A stretch of DNA of 37,773 nt from a virus (Duplodnaviria > Caudoviricetes). Shown here in pieces: positions 1,159-28,332 of this stretch. Location of the stretch: the IMG/VR virus record IMGVR_UViG_3300012844_000034, positions 1-37,773 of that record; one strand, 5' to 3'. Every line of letters begins with the position of its first letter. The stretch's first letter is position 1. The position numbers and the translations under genes were made by a program. The notes beneath the pieces were generated by a model that searched no databases, had not been told where the DNA came from, and worked only from the letters and a program-made list of their open reading frames with translations.

Positions 1159-1200
1159 TTTGTTGGGGTACACGGAACGGCGGTGATTAGCCCTGCGCGT

Positions 1201-1292
1201 AGCAGCGCTTTGAGTCGATCCAGCTGGCAGGAGTGGCCGCTTTCGACCCATAGCGGACTCTTGCAAAGGGCAGTAATCGTCCAAAAGCGGTA
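1201..1292. repeat. Palindromic 24-bp repeat cluster 1
   Basis: GGCCGCTTTCGACCCATAGCGGAC (1235-1258) and GGCAGTAATCGTCCAAAAGCGGTA (1269-1292), plus a degenerate copy near 1201-1226. Confidence 0.75.
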
Positions 1293-1533
1293 TTACCAAT
1301 GCTCCGTAGAGTTTCCTTGTTCCGGGCACAATATCATCCCATCGACAATGCGACGGAAATGCTCATCGCAGTCCTCTGTCGACGCGAGCCCCTTCGCAGA
1401 GGGGGCCTGCGGCCTCAGTAGTGTTTGTATTACTGATCGCTTATATTTGTTCGCCTGTGTGATTTTCGGAACCACTCGCGCGCCGCGGATCCACTGGCTA
1501 TTTAGACCGGCATCAAATCTAAAGGATGGCATC

Positions 1534-2229
1534 GTGGCGTGTTCTCGCGGCAAAGCAGCACCGGATAAGCTGACCGAAAAAAGGCTCTTTGCTTCGTCTG
1601 CTGGCTACTGCCAGCGGCCAGGGTGCACCACCCCCTTGTTTCGAGATACCGGAACCAAGGTAATCCACCTCGCTGAAATGGCCCACATTTTTGCGGCCAA
1701 TAACGATGGGCCGCGTGCAAACCCTGCTATGTCAGCAGAAGAGCGCGGAGCCTTTGAAAATCTAATTCTGCTGTGCCCTACATGTCATACGATGATCGAC
1801 AAAGCACCGCAAGATTTCCCAGATGGCACGGTCATTGGGTGGAAGCAGCAGCACGAACGAAAGCTCGCTCAGCTTTTTGGAGCCCAAAAGTTTTCGACAC
1901 GAGAGGAAACCTTTTTGGCAATCAGGCCACTGATGCTTCAAAATCGGATGATCCATCAGCAACTGAATCCTGAGTTGGAGTATCGCTACAATCCTGAGGC
2001 GGAAGAGGCGTCCCAATGGAAGCTAAAAATGGTCGAGCAGATCATACCTAATTCTCGTCGCGTCCTTAGCATCCTCGATGCGAATACCCGACTTATGACT
2101 GAGGAAGAGGAAGTTACACTGGAGTTGTTCAGGCAGCATGTTTATGACCTTGAAGCTCGACATATTGCCAAAATCCCTGCCGGAGCCCAGAGTCGGTTTC
2201 CGATCAAAATGAACGAGATGATGAGATAA
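1534..2229 (+). CDS. HNH endonuclease (Cap5-like Zn-HNH domain) with an unassigned helical C-terminal domain
   Basis: Motifs CQRPGC, AEMAHI, GPR and NLILLCPTCHTMID. GTG at 1534 follows AAAGGA (1521-1526) and is in frame with ORF 1183..2229. Confidence 0.85.
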   Translation: MACSRGKAAPDKLTEKRLFASSAGYCQRPGCTTPLFRDTGTKVIHLAEMAHIFAANNDGPRANPAMSAEERGAFENLILLCPTCHTMIDKAPQDFPDGTVIGWKQQHERKLAQLFGAQKFSTREETFLAIRPLMLQNRMIHQQLNPELEYRYNPEAEEASQWKLKMVEQIIPNSRRVLSILDANTRLMTEEEEVTLELFRQHVYDLEARHIAKIPAGAQSRFPIKMNEMMR

Positions 2230-2233
2230 GACG

Positions 2234-2905
2234 ATGGCACGGAGCCCTCAGGACAACACAAATTTTGCCAGCAGCATGATTGCCAGAATGACTGAAGTTG
2301 TACAACGAGTGGAGACCGTTACTCCGTATTCGTTCCTAGTGCACACGGAAAAATTTCCCCCTGTGCGGGTAGGTGTACTCTCGATAAACAAGGTTGAAGC
2401 ATCAGATATCCAAAGATTGCTCGATGCAGATCCAAGAGTCGAGTTCATAGCGAATATTCCGAAGGTCGGAGTATGGCAAGGCTCAGCAATCCACCTTCTG
2501 CAAGAAAAGGGAGTTGCTTTTGGCCCTGTGAAACACTTGATGGGCGCCATCAGTGGCCGACGAGATGAGGAGCCTCTCAATGATTATGAGCACGCAGAAA
2601 CTAAATATTTCAAGACGATATTGTCCCAGCACAAAAATTTGCATAAATTGGTGCGTATTACTGACTTGATTTATGAATTCCACCGCAAAAACGGCGAGCC
2701 CCTTCTGATTGCCGGTTTGAATGATTATGAACTGACAGGTGTCATGATTCGAGCGGCAGTTGCTCAGCACGGTCAAGTCTCGATAATTTTTGCGACCAAC
2801 CCCAATGGCGGGCCTACACCCGAAGCGTACGACGCCGCAAAATCCATGGGCATTGAGTTGTACGATCAGAGGAATGATTTCTACCGCAGGCTACACACTC
2901 CATGA
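2234..2905 (+). CDS. Hypothetical protein with two apparently duplicated alpha/beta domains (possibly degenerate restriction-endonuclease-like fold)
   Basis: 223 aa, starts 4 nt after the HNH stop. The C-terminus IIFATNPNGGPTPEAYDAAKSMGIELYD resembles the end of Mrr-type domains. Confidence 0.7.
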   Translation: MARSPQDNTNFASSMIARMTEVVQRVETVTPYSFLVHTEKFPPVRVGVLSINKVEASDIQRLLDADPRVEFIANIPKVGVWQGSAIHLLQEKGVAFGPVKHLMGAISGRRDEEPLNDYEHAETKYFKTILSQHKNLHKLVRITDLIYEFHRKNGEPLLIAGLNDYELTGVMIRAAVAQHGQVSIIFATNPNGGPTPEAYDAAKSMGIELYDQRNDFYRRLHTP

Positions 2906-3246
2906 GTGTTGCACAGTTGCTGCAATGCCTCACGAAGGTTATAGATCTGACCGAATCATCCGTCTCTAATGCAAGATGGTTCGGCTTCGGGTCATTTTTT
3001 TTGAGCACAAAACACTTCAGCGATGTCGATCTGTTAGTCGTGTGCGAGACACAGGAGGACGGCATTTTGATTTATCAAATGTGTCGTGAACTTTTGGCCG
3101 AATGGCCAGTCGACCTCCTGATAATGACTCAGACCGAAGCAGCCGATACTTCGTTCATCGTCAGGTGGGGCTGTATCCCCCTACTTGGGGGGATTCCGCA
3201 TTGGCGGACGAGCCAAGGTGCGACTTCCCCTGATGAAAACTGTTGA
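2902..3246 (+). CDS. Minimal nucleotidyltransferase (Pol-beta superfamily, MNT-like)
   Basis: FGFGSF...SDVDLLVV (GS plus DxD) and a third acidic residue in PVDLLIM; ATGA overlap with the upstream gene. Confidence 0.8.
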   Translation: MSVAQLLQCLTKVIDLTESSVSNARWFGFGSFFLSTKHFSDVDLLVVCETQEDGILIYQMCRELLAEWPVDLLIMTQTEAADTSFIVRWGCIPLLGGIPHWRTSQGATSPDENC

Positions 3247-3284: not shown

Positions 3285-3341
3285 GCCTGCGTTGATCGCT
3301 GCCTGATCGAAACGACAGGCAGCTCTGGGTTGAAAGCCGTC
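3285..3341. repeat. Palindromic repeat cluster 2
   Basis: GGCAGCTCTGGGTTGAAAGCCGTC at 3318-3341 and a degenerate unit near 3285-3303. Confidence 0.7.
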
Positions 3342-3482: not shown

Positions 3483-4172
3483 TCACCTTTCCTTACCATG
3501 CGCGCCCAATTGTTCTGGAGAACCCCGCAGTGTGCGGCATGTATTGCAATTCAATGGCAGGGCAAGATCCTCTGATTCACTTTCGGAAAATTTAATAACA
3601 CACAAACCTAAGTCCCTTAGCGCATCGTTACCAACGACCTCCCGGATATCCGATAGCATTTTCGCATCAAGGAGAAGTTTATCAGCGGTTTCCTCCGCGC
3701 CGGACCGTCTCAAGCCACGAACCTTGCGTATCGCCACATTGCAACTCCAACACTCATCTTCCGCGCATAGCAAGGTAAATTGCTCTTTTCCATCTTGGTC
3801 GCCCAGATAGCACGAAACTCACAAACTTCGGTAGCGGCACCTCAATCTCTTAATCATTGATATAGATATATCGCTGATCATTTAAAGCTCGAAGGCTGGA
3901 AGAATAAAAGAAGGTTCGAGCCTGCTTCGAGTGAGTCTAGACGCCAACCATAGCGATTTAACGCCTGACTCGATATACATGCGCTGATGCCTATTGAACT
4001 CTTCAGGGGGCTGCCCAGACAGGTGCACTTCAATCACCCTTGCTTCGTCATCTCTATTTCAATAGACATCCGCGACCCACTGATACCCGGATGGGGCGGC
4101 TCCGCGAAATTCCGTGATTGCACGCCAGACCACATCAATTGAAATCGGGTAACGCTGCCCGAGTGCGCCATC
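3483..4172 (-). pseudogene. Degraded CoiA-like PD-(D/E)xK nuclease with Cys-rich C-terminus
   Basis: Manual minus-strand translation reads WRAITEFRGAAPSGYQWVADVY*NRDDEARVIEVHLSGQPPEEFNRHQRMYIESGVKSLWL, with stops at 4059-4061 and 3882-3884. The downstream fragment 3483..3773 has CWSC and CNTC. Confidence 0.6.
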
Positions 4173-4189
4173 CGCTCACCCTTGTAAGT

Positions 4190-4220
4190 CGCGACCATCC
4201 CCTATCGGCCGGTCACGGAC
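4190..4220. repeat. Degenerate palindromic repeat unit (cluster 3)
   Basis: ATCCCCTATCGGCCGGTCACGGAC near 4198-4220 partly matches the unit (CTATCGGCC...CGGAC). Confidence 0.35.
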
Positions 4221-4348: not shown

Positions 4349-4750
4349 ATGAAAAAAAGGACTTTTGACTTTTACAGGCTGTTGCACGAGATCGAGTTTG
4401 AGATAGGAAGCGAATGCTACAATGGCAATATTCAGAACTTCGGTCCTGGTGGGTCTTGGGAGGGGGATGGTAGAGATTTTCGCTACCCAGTTCGTTTCAC
4501 CAATGCTGAAGGCGAGCGCGAGAAATACAGAGGAAAGTTCCCGTTTACGAAGAGCTCTAGCGGGGAAGTAGCATACTGCATTCTCGGCGAAAGTCGTTTT
4601 AGTTCTGCTCACTATGCTTTTGGGGCGAATGAGCTTTACATTATGCGAGGAATCAAACACGCTCTTGAAAAGTTAGAGTCACGATTCGGCATAGACTTTG
4701 ATGAGCTATTGAAACAGGAAAAGACCTCCGAGAAAGGGGGGGCAAATTAG
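4349..4750 (+). CDS. Hypothetical protein (accessory cargo)
   Basis: 133-aa ORF with protein-like composition, AT-rich, lying between repeat clusters; no recognised family. Confidence 0.75.
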   Translation: MKKRTFDFYRLLHEIEFEIGSECYNGNIQNFGPGGSWEGDGRDFRYPVRFTNAEGEREKYRGKFPFTKSSSGEVAYCILGESRFSSAHYAFGANELYIMRGIKHALEKLESRFGIDFDELLKQEKTSEKGGAN

Positions 4751-4878: not shown

Positions 4879-5003
4879 GGCTGAAACTGGCCATTTGCCA
4901 CACCCTACCAACGGCGGCTATGGGTCGAAAGCGGACGGTCGCGAGCGGCCGCAATCGCCCCAAAGCGGCCGGTGGCGGCGAGCAAAGAACGGCCAAAGCC
5001 GAC
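4879..5003. repeat. Palindromic repeat cluster 4, four units at a 34-bp period
   Basis: Units start at 4879, 4913 (GGCGGCTATGGGTCGAAAGCGGAC), 4947 (GGCCGCAATCGCCCCAAAGCGGCC) and 4981; the outer two are degenerate. Confidence 0.8.
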
Positions 5004-5060
5004 TAATCGTGGCATCTACCAAATCAGCGAAAAGTCATCTTGTTGGCAAGCGAGGTCAAG

Positions 5061-5816
5061 TTAACGCTCATAAATTGGCCTAGGATCTGTATGCTCTAGA
5101 CGGCGGTTCTGTGCAATAGATGCAATCCTGCCACTGAGTATAATTAGCAGCCTGGTGCAAGCTTGCGAGTAATAGTGTTTCGCATCAAAGGTGTAATTGT
5201 CGTTAAAGGTCTTTCGGTAAAGGTCTTTGCATTTGTCGTGCAAGGAAGTGTCTGCGAGTGAAATTCCTAGCTTGTGTGCAAAGCTGTTCCGAACTGCTCG
5301 CACTACCTCAATTGCTTGTAGTTCATCTTTCGAAATAAGACCGAGTGAGAAAGCTGCCTTCGTTCGAGCTGAAAAGGCGGAGAGCGGACCGCTGCCTCTA
5401 CGAAGCATGTCCTTCGTAATGGTGCTTTCAACGAGAAACTGCTCTAGTAGCCGACATAGCATTTCATCCACCATTGACGCCCAGACGAGAACAAGCCCTC
5501 TCTCAGTACCGCTGGCGTTCTCGCGATTGGCCTCTTCGAGAAACTCATGGATATCGTGCCACCCGACAGGTAAGGCTGGCGGATGTAATTCTTCATGTAC
5601 TAGTGACGGTGCGTCGAGTTTCGCCGGAGCTACATTGCCGAATTCACCGGATACGCATCGCTCGAATATTTCTCTCCCGTGGGGTTCTGAGTCTAACGGG
5701 GAGGCCGTAAAAGGCACTTCTTGCCCGAGGTGCTCAAAGAAGACCTGGCAATTGATAGAGGAGCATTCGCTGCTGGACCAGTGCGGTTCACGCACATCGC
5801 GGTAGTTGATTTTCAT
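5061..5816 (-). CDS. Fusion of a tail-fibre-assembly (Tfa)-like N-terminal domain and an MtlR-family HEPN domain
   Basis: N-terminus has PHWSSSECSSINCQVFFEHLGQEVPFTASPLDSEPHGREIFERCVSGEFG. C-terminus has TERGLVLV, GPLSAFSART, LGLIS and VRNSFAH (RxxxxH at 5274-5291). Start is at 5816 or 5822. Confidence 0.8.
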   Translation of the reverse strand: MKINYRDVREPHWSSSECSSINCQVFFEHLGQEVPFTASPLDSEPHGREIFERCVSGEFGNVAPAKLDAPSLVHEELHPPALPVGWHDIHEFLEEANRENASGTERGLVLVWASMVDEMLCRLLEQFLVESTITKDMLRRGSGPLSAFSARTKAAFSLGLISKDELQAIEVVRAVRNSFAHKLGISLADTSLHDKCKDLYRKTFNDNYTFDAKHYYSQACTRLLIILSGRIASIAQNRRLEHTDPRPIYER

Positions 5817-5881
5817 TGTCATCTCATTCTGGTAATTAGTATGGCCGCCGTAAAGCACGCGGATATTCTAGTTCATCCCAT

Positions 5882-6012
5882 GACTGCATTTGGCCTCTTC
5901 TGCCGGTGCTGACCGGCAGCTTTGGGTCGAAAGCGGTCACTACCACATAATGGATTTGGGCATTTTCAGCCGTTCTGATCCAGCCGATTTAGGGGGCGGG
6001 TCGATAGCCGCC
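5882..6012. repeat. Palindromic repeat cluster 5
   Basis: GGCAGCTTTGGGTCGAAAGCGGTC at 5915-5938, with degenerate units at 5882-5904 and about 5995-6012 (GGCGGGTCGATAGCCGCC). Confidence 0.75.
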
Positions 6013-6143: not shown

Positions 6144-6407
6144 TCACCTCTTATTCAATTGCGCACACTCTTTTCGCGCAGCATCCCGCTGCTGGTCCAG
6201 GTAGAGAGCCAGATCAGCAATGTGTATGCCTCGGGCGCTCTTCTGGCTCGGTTCAAGCCGGGTGATCGGCAGCTTGATCTCTCCGGCCAGCACCTTGCGT
6301 TGGAATACAAGCGGCGTTAGGTGCGTGAAGTAGTCAGCGCATACCTGTTCGAGCGAGATTATCGCCGTGCCGTTGTACTGCGCCATCAAAACAAAGGCCG
6401 TGTTCAC
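6144..6407 (-). CDS. Pyocin activator PrtN-family DNA-binding protein
   Basis: MNTAFVLMAQY...CADYF.HLT...SQKSARGIHIADLALYLD is the typical family pattern. Confidence 0.88.
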   Translation of the reverse strand: MNTAFVLMAQYNGTAIISLEQVCADYFTHLTPLVFQRKVLAGEIKLPITRLEPSQKSARGIHIADLALYLDQQRDAARKECAQLNKR

Positions 6408-7237: not shown

Positions 7238-7477
7238 TTAGCTCGTCTTCTGCGCTTGGGTGTCGAGGTAGTCGGCAAGGTCGTGCAGGTAAATCACATA
7301 CTGCGCTCGGACCGAGTGGTGTAGCTTTTTAGGGTTCAACCCAATCTTTCCGGCGTTGATCAGTTCCCTGAATCGGCGGTCTGTTTTGATATGTGGAAAG
7401 TAGTGTTCTCGCACGGCAGTCAAGGTCGGGCAGGGAGTGCCCCATTGTTTGAACAGTTGCCCAAACGTGCCCGTCAT
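7238..7477 (-). CDS. Second, divergent PrtN-like DNA-binding protein
   Basis: LTAVREHYFPHI...INAGKIGL...IYLHDLADYLD parallels the 6144..6407 protein; ATGA overlap at 7474-7477. Confidence 0.75.
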   Translation of the reverse strand: MTGTFGQLFKQWGTPCPTLTAVREHYFPHIKTDRRFRELINAGKIGLNPKKLHHSVRAQYVIYLHDLADYLDTQAQKTS

Positions 7478-7983
7478 TGGCGGTCCCCGTACCCTACATG
7501 GGGTTGGCCGAGCCTGGTTCGTACTGCATTCGCAAGCGTGAGCTTGCAACTGCCGTATGCAGTCGTGCAGATATCGCCCTGCTCATTAGTTACAACGATG
7601 CCGAAGGGCTGGTTTTCGTCCGTGGTGGGAGTGATGTAAGCGCGCAGGCCTTCAGGTAACACATCGCTCACGCAGTCGAGCGCTTCCATCAAGGCGATGG
7701 CGCGCTGGGTCTGTTGGCCCGACTCAGTTCGGCCATTGGCCACGTCCTGCAGGAAGTTGCGAAGGGCCATGTACTTGGTCGAGTCGCCGCGCCGCAGGGT
7801 GATCGAGCCCGTGTAGGGGCCAAAGCGCACCTGCAGGTGGTGGTCGCGGTCGTCGTTCTCAACCAGGATGTGGGCGTCGAGAGAGGTTTCAGGGCGGTTC
7901 AAGGGGCAGGTGGTGTTGCCGCCATTCTCCAGCGTGCGCTCCAGCAGCATCACGCGGCGCAGCTTGATTGTGAAATCACTCAT
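7474..7983 (-). CDS. Phage hypothetical protein
   Basis: 169-aa ORF translationally coupled within the early-left operon. Confidence 0.7.
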   Translation of the reverse strand: MSDFTIKLRRVMLLERTLENGGNTTCPLNRPETSLDAHILVENDDRDHHLQVRFGPYTGSITLRRGDSTKYMALRNFLQDVANGRTESGQQTQRAIALMEALDCVSDVLPEGLRAYITPTTDENQPFGIVVTNEQGDICTTAYGSCKLTLANAVRTRLGQPHVGYGDRQ

Positions 7984-8141
7984 ACCGCACCCCCGTTAGG
8001 TACGGCGCGAACGTGCCCGGATGGAGTGACGATCAGTTGCAGGCCGGTGAAGCGTTGAAACGCCTCAATCGTGGCTGGGCGGGTGCAGGTGGTGGGGTGC
8101 AAGTAAACCTTGCACCCATTTCGGAGCTGTGCAATTGGCAT
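7980..8141 (-). CDS. Small phage protein (53 aa), first gene of the early-left operon; not in the ORF track
   Basis: MPIAQLRNGCKVYLHPTTCTRPATIEAFQRFTGLQLIVTPSGHVRAVPNGGAV, with a GAGG RBS and an ATGA overlap with the next gene. Confidence 0.65.
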   Translation of the reverse strand: MPIAQLRNGCKVYLHPTTCTRPATIEAFQRFTGLQLIVTPSGHVRAVPNGGAV

Positions 8142-8142
8142 T

Positions 8143-8177
8143 TCTGGACCTCAGTGGTGAGAGGGTTGCGGTCCAGA
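8143..8177 (-). promoter_or_regulatory. Leader hairpin with CCTCTCACCAC loop, overlapping the RBS of the 53-aa gene
   Basis: TCTGGACC/GGTCCAGA stem; loop motif at 8154-8164 on the minus strand. Confidence 0.55.
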
Positions 8178-8179
8178 CA

Positions 8180-8240
8180 ATACTCAAACGAATTTTTCCG
8201 GTCAATACCTAAACGAGACGGTTGCGATTCGTTTAGGGGT
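8180..8240. promoter_or_regulatory. Left operator cluster (three 14-bp sites)
   Basis: ATACTCAAACGAAT (8180-8193), ATACCTAAACGAGA (8205-8218) and ATTCGTTTAGGGGT (8227-8240). Confidence 0.6.
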
Positions 8241-8899
8241 TAAAAGATTTCAACCTTCGATACGACCACGCCACAAATGGTTGCGTCACTCGGCAGTTCG
8301 ATGATTGGGTCCGGCCAAGATGGGTTCAGAGGCTTCAAAAAGTGCCGCTCACCCTCTACCACCAGCTGCTTGAAGGTTGCCTCTTTGCTGTTTGCCAGCT
8401 TGACGATGACCAGGGAGCCATTTTCATAGTCCCTAGCCGGGTCGACAAAGATGATATCTCCCTCTCTGAAGGAACGACGCTCATGCGGGTTAAACATGGA
8501 AAGACCGCGAACCCGCAGGGCAAAAGTCGCACTGCTGTGTGAGACGGCGCAGGGTAACCAAGCTTCTGCAGCCTCAAGTTCAAACGGTTCTTGCATCTCG
8601 CACCAGGCTCCGGCCTGTACCCAAGAAATCAGAGGTACGAAGCCACGAACGTTCGGTCCTGGCTCCACATTGGCCGTTGGCCCGAGTGGCGGCTGACTGC
8701 CACCTTCTCCCTTCCATAGCCAATCAGTAGTCACACCGAGGGCTTTTGCGATCCGCTCGACATTCTCATGCCGGGGGCTAGCGGATGTGCCCGACAGAAT
8801 CCTATGGATGGTTGGCTGTGGTACTCCCGAACGTCGGGCGAGCTCACCGCCTGACAGCCCGAGTTCATGCATGCGTTTTGCTACGCGATTCCCTATCAC
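8240..8899 (-). CDS. cI: CI-like repressor (HTH plus S24 LexA-type peptidase)
   Basis: HTH LSGGELARRSGVPQPTIHRI, VQAG cleavage site, GLSM catalytic Ser and ATFKQL Lys; divergent from cro. Confidence 0.93.
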   Translation of the reverse strand: MIGNRVAKRMHELGLSGGELARRSGVPQPTIHRILSGTSASPRHENVERIAKALGVTTDWLWKGEGGSQPPLGPTANVEPGPNVRGFVPLISWVQAGAWCEMQEPFELEAAEAWLPCAVSHSSATFALRVRGLSMFNPHERRSFREGDIIFVDPARDYENGSLVIVKLANSKEATFKQLVVEGERHFLKPLNPSWPDPIIELPSDATICGVVVSKVEIF

Positions 8900-25733: not shown

Positions 25734-26452
25734 GCCTGCTGCCGCATAACGCCACGCTGCTGGAACGGGCGCTTGAGCGTGCTGGCGAGCTGGGTGTAGA
25801 CCCGGAAATCATCCGGGGCGTGGCCGATTCCGCGCGCTGCCCGCCCAACTTCCTGCCCTGGCTGGGCTGGGCGCTCAAGGTCGAAGGCTGGGAGGCGGCT
25901 TACATCGACACCCAGCGCCGCGAGCTGATCCACGAGGCGATCCCGGTGCACAAGACCAAGGGCACTGTCGGCGCGATCCGGCGGGTGCTCAAGGCGATTC
26001 GCGTCAACGCGGAGTTCAAGGAATGGCACCAGATCCCGAACGCTGCGCCGTACACGTTCCAGATCACGGCGTGGGCCAACGATAACCGGCCGGGGGAGGG
26101 CTCAATCATCTCGCCCGAGCTGGGTATGCGATTGCGCGCCCTGGTCGACGCGGCGAAGAACGAGCGCAGCCACTACGAGTTTCGGCTGGGCGCGCGCTTC
26201 GACGGCGGCCTGGTGCTGGGCAACGCCTTCCAGGCGCGCGCGGTGCAGCACCGGTCCATGGATGCTCAGGCGGTGCCCGTCGACCCCATGGCGCAGACGG
26301 TGCTGTTTGCCAATGCGCTCAACGCGTCCAGCGTGTCCCGGCGATTTGCCGAGGCGCAGGGCGTTCCCATTCAAGCAGAAGGCGCCCCGCTGGTGGCCAA
26401 CGCGGCGCATGTGCGCACGGTCGTGCGGGGCTACATGGAGGCTGTTCTATGA
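25730..26452 (+). CDS. Tail protein I (P2 gpI-like)
   Basis: SLLPHNATLLE, CP..FLPWLGW and H..KGT.GA motifs. Confidence 0.9.
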   Translation: MSLLPHNATLLERALERAGELGVDPEIIRGVADSARCPPNFLPWLGWALKVEGWEAAYIDTQRRELIHEAIPVHKTKGTVGAIRRVLKAIRVNAEFKEWHQIPNAAPYTFQITAWANDNRPGEGSIISPELGMRLRALVDAAKNERSHYEFRLGARFDGGLVLGNAFQARAVQHRSMDAQAVPVDPMAQTVLFANALNASSVSRRFAEAQGVPIQAEGAPLVANAAHVRTVVRGYMEAVL

Positions 26453-27135
26453 GTACAGGCTTGCAACCTGTCATCACCAAGGCCGGCCTGGCGGCGATCC
26501 TGACGGCAACGAAAACCGGACTTTCGGCCGAAATTAGCCATATCGCCCTGGGCAGCGTGGCCTACACCCCAGGCGCCGATCAAAAGACCCTGCGCAACGA
26601 GGTGGCGCGGTTCCCGATTTCCAGCGGCGAGAAGCTGAGCAGCACCCTGTTGCATCTAACCGCTGTCGCGGATGGCACGACCGGCTACTGGGTGCGTGAG
26701 ATTGGCATTTTCCTCAAGGACGGCACCTTGTTGGCGGTTTGGTCGCACTTGACCGAGGCGCTGGCCTACAAGGCCCCCAACATCGACCTGCTGCTGGCCT
26801 ACGACCTGTCACTGTCGGCGCTGCCGGCAGACAGCGTGACCATCACCAGCACGGCCGCCGGCCTCAACTTGACGTTGGCTGAGTCCTTGGCCGCGCAAGC
26901 CACGGCGCTCATTGCCGAGCAACTGCGCACTCTGCAGCAGCAAGACCGCCTGGTTAGCCAGGAACGACTGCAGCGCATTGCAGGGGAGCAAATCAGCGGC
27001 CTGCTGGAGCGCATGAGTACCGCCGAGAAATCCGCCTCCGAAACGCGCGACGTACTGCTAAGCGTGACGGTTGCCAATGCCACCGGCCTGATGGCCCTTC
27101 AACACACCGTTCTCCAACACATTCACGGATCCTAA
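26449..27135 (+). CDS. Tail fibre N-terminal/collar protein
   Basis: IT.AGLA...WVREIGIF..DGTL.AV (gpH-type baseplate anchor) followed by a coiled coil. Confidence 0.8.
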   Translation: MSTGLQPVITKAGLAAILTATKTGLSAEISHIALGSVAYTPGADQKTLRNEVARFPISSGEKLSSTLLHLTAVADGTTGYWVREIGIFLKDGTLLAVWSHLTEALAYKAPNIDLLLAYDLSLSALPADSVTITSTAAGLNLTLAESLAAQATALIAEQLRTLQQQDRLVSQERLQRIAGEQISGLLERMSTAEKSASETRDVLLSVTVANATGLMALQHTVLQHIHGS

Positions 27136-27137
27136 CC

Positions 27138-27869
27138 ATGAGCCTTGAAACTGAAATCGCCGCGCTGGTCGCGGCCAACAACAAGCTGATTGACTATTTC
27201 AACGGCAAAAAGACCGCGATTGACGCCGCCGTGTCGGCCGCCATCGCTGCAGCGCCGTCCATGGTCCGTGTCTACTGGGTTGACCAGCAGCTTGGGGACG
27301 ACGCCAACGGCCTCGGCACCGAGGCGAGTCCGTTCAAGACCCTGCAGCAGGCTATCAACGCTACCCCGGACGGTGGCCGGGTGCAGGCCTGGCTGTCCAA
27401 GGACTATGTGATGGACAAGCACATCAACCTGACCGGCCGGCGATTGATCGTTGCCGGCGTGGCGGGTTCGGGTCGTCGCCTGACCATCAACGAATTCATG
27501 CCAGAAGGTGACACCCTGCTGCGCATGGGTTCTTTCTGGGCTTCGAACGATTCCACCGTCCAGCTGGTGAACGTGACGGTGAGTCTTCCGGCTTCGAGCG
27601 CCGGTGACCTGAGCGCGTATTACGGGCTCGTTTTTGCCAGCGGTTCGTCGGCGCCGATCATGCTGCAGCTGCGCATGTACAACTGCGCGTTCGAGCTGCG
27701 CGGCACCTTCCGGGGCAAGTTGTTTGGCCCTGGATCGGTACTGTTCGCGCTGTCGATGATCGGCACCGCTGTGCCTTCGGCGCTCAATGGCTCGCTGATT
27801 CCTGGCGTTTCTGCTGGCACCCTTTCCAAAGACGTCGGCCACGTCGTCACCAACCTGTCGAGCCTGTGA
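27138..27869 (+). CDS. Tail fibre/receptor-binding-like protein
   Basis: MSLETEIAALV coiled coil, YWVD...GDD..G....PFKTLQQAI motif, then a beta-rich domain. Confidence 0.6.
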   Translation: MSLETEIAALVAANNKLIDYFNGKKTAIDAAVSAAIAAAPSMVRVYWVDQQLGDDANGLGTEASPFKTLQQAINATPDGGRVQAWLSKDYVMDKHINLTGRRLIVAGVAGSGRRLTINEFMPEGDTLLRMGSFWASNDSTVQLVNVTVSLPASSAGDLSAYYGLVFASGSSAPIMLQLRMYNCAFELRGTFRGKLFGPGSVLFALSMIGTAVPSALNGSLIPGVSAGTLSKDVGHVVTNLSSL

Positions 27870-27876
27870 GGCGACC

Positions 27877-28332
27877 ATGCAAAAAACCTTTCTGAACGTC
27901 GTCTATGGCGACAACACCTACAACGGCTTTGACTTCGACGCGCTGCCCATTGGCGCCGCGTTGCTGGTGGCGCAGCAGCAAATCGAGCAAGCCGCCGACC
28001 AGGCGCGCTCGGCGGTACTCGGTGACCCGCTGCGTGCCATCGAGAACCAGCTGGCCGAAGACGAAGCGAAGGCCTTCAAGCAGGCGGGTTACGCCGGCGA
28101 AGTGCCGTTGACCGTACAGGCGCTGGTCGATGCCCAGGGCGTCGAGCCCATGGAAGCGGCCGAGGCGATCCTGCAGGAGGCGCAGGCCTGGCATGCGGCG
28201 GTGTGCTCGATCCGCGCGGCTCGCCTCAAGGGCAAGGTCGAGGTGCTCAAGGCAACCACCCATGCGCAGGCTGAGGCCTATGCCGATACGGCAATCAACG
28301 CCATCCGCGCGAGTGTATCCGGCATCGTCTGA
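27877..28332 (+). CDS. Tail fibre-associated protein, possible chaperone
   Basis: Helical 151-aa protein directly after the fibre genes. Confidence 0.55.
   Translation: MQKTFLNVVYGDNTYNGFDFDALPIGAALLVAQQQIEQAADQARSAVLGDPLRAIENQLAEDEAKAFKQAGYAGEVPLTVQALVDAQGVEPMEAAEAILQEAQAWHAAVCSIRAARLKGKVEVLKATTHAQAEAYADTAINAIRASVSGIV

Follow-up and report, generated by a model that had tools for sequence, protein, structure and literature searches.

Sensors of the SecB type are known from toxin-antitoxin-chaperone systems. Two described HEPN proteins stand closer to the gene reported here. HepS of the Salmonella prophage Gifsy-1 is, in the accessible text of its report, the product of a solo accessory gene, carries an Rx4H HEPN motif, is switched on by a tail tip protein while virions are being made, cleaves tRNA anticodons, avoids its own prophage by way of a different tail, and has no separate sensor, its own termini pairing with a lambda J peptide (PMC13043305). 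RAZR, according to the available text of a review, is a single protein in which an N-terminal zinc-finger sensor precedes a DUF4145-like HEPN domain, and it is activated on oligomeric phage structural proteins that form 12- or 24-fold rings (PMC13434031). Two further systems concern the tail. PD-T2-1 is a two-gene defence system, one gene having a predicted membrane segment, that is activated by tail fibre proteins (T7 gp17 and T2 gp37, gp34 and gp12), and the accessible text of its report does not contain the word HEPN (PMC12236752). The Schlafen protein pSlfn5 is presented in the available text as a sensor-RNase fusion tied to tail assembly, whose target is a phage chaperone that carries an Ig-like domain (PMC13056530).

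The window, that is, the whole stretch of 37,773 nt that was analysed, is a provirus record (93% complete) in which positions 5061-5816 (minus strand) form an open frame for a protein of 251 aa, P0001, and every motif quoted for it in the earlier note was present. Using translation, profiles, and a structure model, the protein was divided into three parts, all on the minus strand: an N-terminal domain of tail-fibre assembly proteins of the PB1 gp45 type (residues 1-66; 5619-5816), which is the predicted sensor and has the VPFTAS strand (residues 34-39; 5700-5717) at the centre of its predicted fibre-binding face; a variable Pro-rich linker (residues 67-84; 5565-5618; pLDDT below 50 at 69-81); and a HEPN domain of the MtlR/HepS/DUF4145 neighbourhood (residues 85-240; 5097-5564), the predicted RNase, which contains the HEPN Rx4H motif R176-N-S-F-A-H181 (5274-5291) with a polar residue after the arginine. 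Like HepS, the fusion is encoded by a solo prophage accessory gene, and the same scheme of trigger and self-avoidance is proposed for it; unlike HepS, it has a discrete phage-derived domain of 66 aa, and its predicted trigger is a side-fibre tip. With RAZR it shares the one-protein layout and the proposed activation on an oligomeric phage structural protein, but its sensor is a chaperone domain and its putative trigger a trimeric tip; no zinc-finger family match was found in P0001 with Pfam or NCBIfam, and no conserved CxxC pairs were seen in the alignments. Tail fibre proteins are the predicted activators here as in PD-T2-1, and where pSlfn5 detects a chaperone, the chaperone domain is here the predicted detector. 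The two-part plan with a fibre-binding N-domain is that of PB1 gp45, KoPa-4 gp26, Pam3 gp25, and Mu Tfa (PMC9608196, accessible text), except that HEPN replaces the helical C-domain of the PB1 gp45-type chaperones and that the gene lies away from any fibre gene. In its proposed action the fusion is like HepS and RAZR, and it belongs to neither.

The assignment of the C-terminal half to HEPN proteins of the MtlR type, made in the earlier note, was borne out by the fold match and the intact RNSFAH motif. The AlphaFold model of P0001 (37-row alignment, mean pLDDT 85.9) consisted of a beta-beta-beta-alpha N-domain, a low-confidence linker at 69-81, and a helical domain, and residues 85-240 showed the helical fold of HEPN domains in structural alignment of the model. 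The closest solved folds were MtlR (Z 14.5, rmsd 2.3, 138 aligned, in agreement with Foldseek) and YggD (Z 14.2); AF0298 gave Z 10.7. HepS was the nearest solved defence protein and lies in the same structural neighbourhood (Z 11.7, rmsd 13.8, 155 aligned, 8-12% identity in structural alignments; profile E 0.04 over 50 positions). The structure matches listed for the whole model in the PDB were taken up by the HEPN half. The best matches in a library of viral models included tail proteins of Aeromonas and Pseudomonas phages and one 'tail assembly chaperone'; a single-sequence fold of the N-domain (pLDDT 55) was left unused. P0001 had no PADLOC 2.0 match at E<=1 (2023 library), and the best match among seven fusion-family members reached E 0.013. 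From its sequence, we infer that the HEPN part would cut RNA as the predicted RNase.

A regulator of sugar genes like MtlR, or another housekeeping role, is very improbable. MtlR is the top fold match, some homologs are named 'MltR family transcriptional regulator' in their source records, and one homolog (L189) lies approximately 30 nt 3' of the kinase gene that closes a mannitol dehydrogenase (polyol) operon. This link was seen at that locus only among the neighbour-scanned loci, with no mannitol operon around the window gene, and the fused gene there has a GC of 0.48 versus 0.61. Moreover, residues 119-195 match Pfam MtlR weakly (E 7.2e-5, 23.2 bits, below the 25.2 cut-off), P0001 is below the family threshold of NCBIfam MltR (score 25.6, cut-off 149), and the fibre-chaperone domain has no evident part in such a role. 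In the accessible text of a HEPN survey, MtlR proteins are often without the motif (about 60% keep Rx4H), lie in mannitol operons, and are without such an N-domain (PMC3710099).

Likeness of the N-terminal domain to tail-fibre assembly proteins had been named beforehand as one point on which the proposal could fail, and similarity was found. Residues 3-67 match PHROG 1795 (E 3.7e-14) and PHROG 1141 (E 2.5e-12), both annotated 'tail fiber protein', and the domain is homologous to PB1 gp45 (E 6.9e-23) and KoPa-4 gp26 (E 3.7e-7). The former is ORF45, located immediately 3' of the 964-aa ORF44, and the latter is the product of an annotated 'tail fiber assembly' gene that follows the fibre gene. 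A 36-row profile of the domain retrieved 2,613 cluster representatives at E<=0.001; among the best matches listed, unfused proteins consisted of the domain alone or of the domain plus C-terminal domains including Phage_tail_APC, Caudo_TAP, and DUF4376. With tblastn, the domain was located in 376 of 50,697 phage records; 315 of the 376 are named Pseudomonas phages, and most of the 376 belong to Pseudomonas phages of Pbunavirus type. Pfam has no family for it, and searches of the PDB by sequence gave no solved relative and no match to Mu Tfa or Pam3 gp25. In these two chaperones it is a variable N-domain that holds the fibre, and trimerisation falls to the C-domain (PMC9608196, accessible text); since no sequence link from the present N-domain to their structures was found, the same roles are assumed here by analogy, and in natural PB1-type chaperones the N-domain would grip the fibre and the C-domain would oligomerise. 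Stand-alone N-domain genes of 85-95 aa occur at L042-L045 and L054-L058, several of them with a tip gene approximately 1.2 kb upstream and another gene in between; the N-domain can occur without any C-domain.

Genes upstream of unfused N-domains share a C-terminal tip of the form G-S/T-Y...AGS-L...GTWRCMG...R-x-S/A/T-stop, and the C-terminus of PB1 ORF44 is a tip of this type. By profile search the tip was found in 32 of 39 unfused loci, a count that is partly circular because the tip profile includes those loci. A reciprocal test was performed on tips with the exact GTWRCMG motif, in which viral contigs (19 of 64 parts) were scanned for DNA encoding the motif and the N-domain was ignored. This gave at least 121 loci and 122 matches (L099 and L038 being the same contig), of which 118 end in R-x-x-stop within 60 residues. 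After eight tips with less than 200 nt downstream were dropped, an N-domain was encoded within 300 nt downstream in 81 of the remaining 110 tips (74 of 100 distinct tails), compared with 1 of 261 control windows; the other 29 tips had no detectable N-domain downstream. A tandem pair of tip-bearing genes lies ahead of one N-domain gene at L118. The tip domain is without a Pfam family (one weak match among 55 members), and its solved relative is PDB 9b45, 'gp47 Tail fiber' (E 5e-17 with the tip profile), which we take to be from phage Pa193. Gene order, together with the complex model described below, suggests that this one class of fibre tip is likely the specific partner of the N-domain and the trigger of the fusion protein.

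A co-fold with a fibre C-terminus, one of the checks proposed in the earlier note, was made as a complex of P0001 residues 1-68 and a Pbunavirus-type tip (L167), each in three copies. The complex scored 0.83 (runs 0.80, 0.85, and 0.83), while the best of three controls reached 0.55. In calibration, 116 of 157 solved complexes attained the score mark, as did 2 of 215 mismatched pairs; the present 3+3 job, run with its own alignments, is unlike that calibration. As a further caveat, the tip itself has a solved relative. At least 96% of contacts agreed between runs, and the partner pLDDT was at least 90. The predicted contacts involve residues 34-39, 41-44, and 46-47 of the N-domain and residues 29-33, 49-53, 2-6, and 77-78 of the tip, including the invariant G52-T53 and the near-invariant position 32, and they fall on the most conserved positions of both families. 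The model supports binding of the window's N-domain to the Pbunavirus-type tip through residues 34-47 on the AGS and S-G-T segments. In view of the single control at 0.55 and of alignments that are mostly natural fibre-chaperone pairs, the result counts as support only, and because of those alignments the pass may reflect the family rather than this copy.

Residues P35, F36, T37, A38, D42, E44, H46, and G47 are equally conserved in 69 fused and 206 unfused domains, a set partly chosen by motif, and F36, A38, and D42 show no variation in either group. An apparent invariance of DxExHGREI in alignment A2 was discarded as an artefact of the search pattern; only D42 is invariant among tip-selected loci. 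These data bear on the explanation that the protein is a defence RNase with another trigger, in which the N-domain would be a strand-binding or autoinhibitory module repurposed for some other phage or host protein. Fused domains do have conserved residues of their own (W13, C23, E33, and C54), and some genomes hold the fusion and the tip together, but the shared conservation of the predicted tip-binding residues (within the partly motif-chosen set) and the passing complex model of the window's N-domain make another trigger unlikely.

The fusion forms a family and is no chance joining: 45 homologs of P0001 were retrieved at E<=0.001, most covering more than 90% of the query. After profile searches, 71 two-domain proteins were present among 285 collected, 66 of them at least 200 aa long, with a median identity to P0001 of 37% and a minimum of 28%; carriers include Rheinheimera, Marinobacter, Halomonas, Budvicia, Pseudocitrobacter, Ensifer, Mesorhizobium, Loktanella, and Amaricoccus. 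In the protein atlas, P0001 falls in a cluster of its own with 50 members, other matches being below 0.9. A tree of 275 N-domains (70 columns, most forks open) requires 10 changes of the fused label versus approximately 62 when labels are shuffled. No other effector was seen on the N-domain among the best 120 of 519 and the best 150 of 2,613 matches; when longer proteins containing this HEPN were sought, the one match was itself a family member, which carries little weight; and matches on plasmids were to the HEPN half only.

The R-[ND]-xxx-H motif is retained in 64 of the 66 full-length fusions (the exceptions read QNVCAH and RNHVAN), and R176, N177, and H181 are invariant in all 16 aligned HEPN domains. 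In comparison with L021 (84% identical), the N-domain had a dN/dS of 0.23 and the HEPN part one of 0.12; both domains are under purifying selection, the HEPN part more strongly constrained. The dS was saturated in the comparison with L001. The conservation of the HEPN part is relevant to the alternative of an assembly blocker, a protein that would bind tips and poison fibre assembly so that progeny are without fibres, with HEPN mainly an oligomer scaffold and no need for the cell to die. Blockers of tail assembly encoded by prophages (Tab, Tai) are known, and the predicted binding position probably coincides with that of the chaperone itself. The accessible HepS text likewise models HepS binding as clashing with J trimerisation (PMC13043305). 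The near-universal motif and the stronger constraint on the HEPN part nevertheless speak against a mere scaffold, and this alternative is considered quite improbable.

In the window, Pfam and PHROGs identify an integrase gene (1-1158), genes for a repressor and for replication, lambda-like genes for the head, and a contractile tail resembling that of P2. Since the terminase-portal region is approximately 72% identical to temperate phages of Pseudomonas aeruginosa, the sequence makes a Pseudomonas host likely. The fusion gene lies within low-GC cargo (0.48-0.51, compared with about 0.60-0.65 in structural genes) flanked by the integrase on one side and an excisionase-like gene on the other. This excisionase gene (6144-6407, minus strand) is one of two of the PrtN-like type, the second being at 7238-7549 (minus strand; both by Pfam and PHROGs); the integrase is 5 kb from them on the opposite strand, with the cargo in between. 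The prophage's own fibre genes are located at 26449-27135 and 27138-27869 (plus strand), and the first starts 20.6 kb from the fusion gene, in line with the separation of about 20 kb from the tail module stated earlier. A gene directly after them (27877-28332, plus strand, 151 aa) likely encodes the prophage's own fibre chaperone; it has no match to the fusion's N-domain, its N-terminus being different, and its C-terminus weakly resembles the chaperone C-domain of an N-domain-bearing protein (28% over 68 aa).

Several other elements were observed in the cargo. A run of three genes at 1183-3246 (plus strand) encodes an HNH nuclease akin to the effector nucleases of CBASS (PADLOC E 1.8e-26), a 223-aa protein, and a minimal nucleotidyltransferase, and is a candidate defence operon. 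Stop-interrupted coding-like pieces at 3483-4200 (minus strand; 3483-3818 and 3882-4058), with no NCBIfam match, are possibly a decayed gene. The gene at 4349-4750 (plus strand, 133 aa) has no match in Pfam, PHROGs, PADLOC, or NCBIfam. A 22-nt repeat with the core GGGTCGAAAGCGG occurs in five copies, all in the cargo region, where none is expected by chance: 1237-1258, 3318-3339, 4913-4934 (plus strand) and 4949-4970 (minus strand), both downstream of the fusion gene, and 5915-5936 (plus strand), upstream of it. The 93%-identical homolog L186 has in common with the window only 4944-5930, so the fusion gene moves alone; the upstream repeat copy is near one end of this shared stretch and the two downstream copies are at the other, which suggests cassettes that are bounded by repeats and differ in kind from those of attC. 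No promoter-like site was seen near the fusion gene, and one terminator-like site was at chance level.

Elsewhere, fused genes are present as single inserts, in attC-like cassettes, as cargo of prophages, and next to defence systems, with several copies among housekeeping genes and many homologs outside phage-like regions. The GC of the fused gene was below that of its flanks in 23 of 28 loci with flanks. A tip gene was near a fused gene in none of 31 loci (1.1-16.8 kb), a set that includes the window's own copy, several near-duplicates, and the incomplete L014, and neighbour scans gave no recurrent partner gene. PADLOC applied to chosen neighbours identified defence genes in 5 of 16 loci (QatABCD, Avs2, AbiEi plus Old, PDC-S01, and PDC-S15; 64 of 146 ORFs) and in 2 of 10 further loci (PDC-M01 and PDC-S01; 24 of 89 ORFs); these counts come from chosen ORFs with no background rate and do not measure enrichment. 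Pfam neighbours were AbiV, PemK, YafO, ParE, and Panacea. At L014 the homolog (7950-8471) lies directly 3' of QatABCD and is truncated ahead of the HEPN motif. At L184 and L185, attC-like sites lie on either side of the fused gene; arrays of such sites are clear at L184 (5900-12400) and L185 and partial at L195, L011, L012, and L193, and no integron integrase was seen within these six loci.

This setting weighs on the explanation that the protein serves in the virion or the tail assembly of the prophage itself. Its N-domain is of a kind that belongs to tail modules, and some chaperones remain on the virion (PMC9608196, accessible text); however, the gene is encoded on the other strand from the tail genes and 20 kb away from them, within low-GC cargo that separates the integrase from the excisionase, the provirus has no cognate tip, none of the 31 fused loci has one, and many homologs lie outside phage-like regions, which together make a virion role extremely improbable.

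Self-tolerance had been tentatively attributed in the earlier note to the prophage's own fibres. By profile search the provirus has a single N-domain copy, that inside the fusion gene, and no match to the GTWRCMG-type tip, its own fibre genes included; the tip profile recovers two positive-control records. The tip is likewise missing from two further fusion-bearing virus records, which are 86% and 13% complete. The attribution fits this prophage, but as a strict exclusion it does not stand, because two of the 14 fusion-bearing bacterial genomes encode tip plus chaperone elsewhere (L252 and L253). In these two genomes the fusion might restrict such prophages on induction or might miss those variants; both are natural test cases for self-avoidance.

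The best reading, to which we assign a probability of about 0.65, is an abortive-infection RNase that uses a co-opted phage chaperone domain as its sensor. The earlier note's proposal to this effect is supported by the agreement of domain homology, motif, tip pairing, and separation from fibre genes. HEPN would stand in place of the natural chaperone's C-domain, and the N-domain would keep its grip on the fibre. The trigger would be the new trimeric fibres that a rival phage (a Pbunavirus such as PB1, a KoPa-4-like phage, or some Aeromonas phages) produces late in its infection. HEPN sites form between two protomers (PMC13043305, accessible text), and for this reason a trimeric tip that gathers up to three sensors would bring HEPN half-sites together; such clustering on a trimer, as in RAZR, is somewhat favoured over pure allosteric release, as in HepS. 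Cleavage of tRNA or other RNA, tRNA being most likely by analogy with HepS, would then halt the infected cell, while the carrying prophage would escape by having a fibre of another class. Competition of the invader's own chaperone for the same tip site would count against this best reading. It is also rather likely that the protein is a prokaryotic 'integrated decoy', in which bacteria and prophages took over the fibre-gripping domain of a phage assembly chaperone and coupled it to an RNase, and in which the sensor reads a surface needed for fibre assembly.

The earlier note knew of no named system with this architecture, and searches of open PubMed Central and bioRxiv text, at the level of listings and the opening lines of abstracts, turned up no account of the fusion; supplementary candidate lists may include homologs. 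In word searches, 'tail' had no occurrence in the HEPN survey (PMC3710099), neither 'tail' nor 'MtlR' occurred in the DefensePredictor paper, and the fusion was likewise absent from PMC8987985. Abortive infection by a sensor joined to HEPN is a known kind; the chaperone origin of the sensor was not found in print.

Triggers of defence systems usually come from escaper screens, whereas in this case the ancestry of the sensor points to the trigger, for which an 80-residue piece of fibre is enough for a test. The tip and the N-domain constitute an unnamed pair of fibre-tip and chaperone domains used by Pbunaviruses. Pbunavirus phages are widely used against Pseudomonas aeruginosa, and if the proposal is true, the fusion predicts resistance to this therapeutic genus. 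It would also provide a small, possibly re-targetable sensor-RNase. Finally, it would mean that immune sensors can arise by capture of a phage's own assembly factor, and a phage would escape at the expense of assembling its fibres, unless its fibre and its chaperone altered in concert or the invader's chaperone out-competed the sensor.
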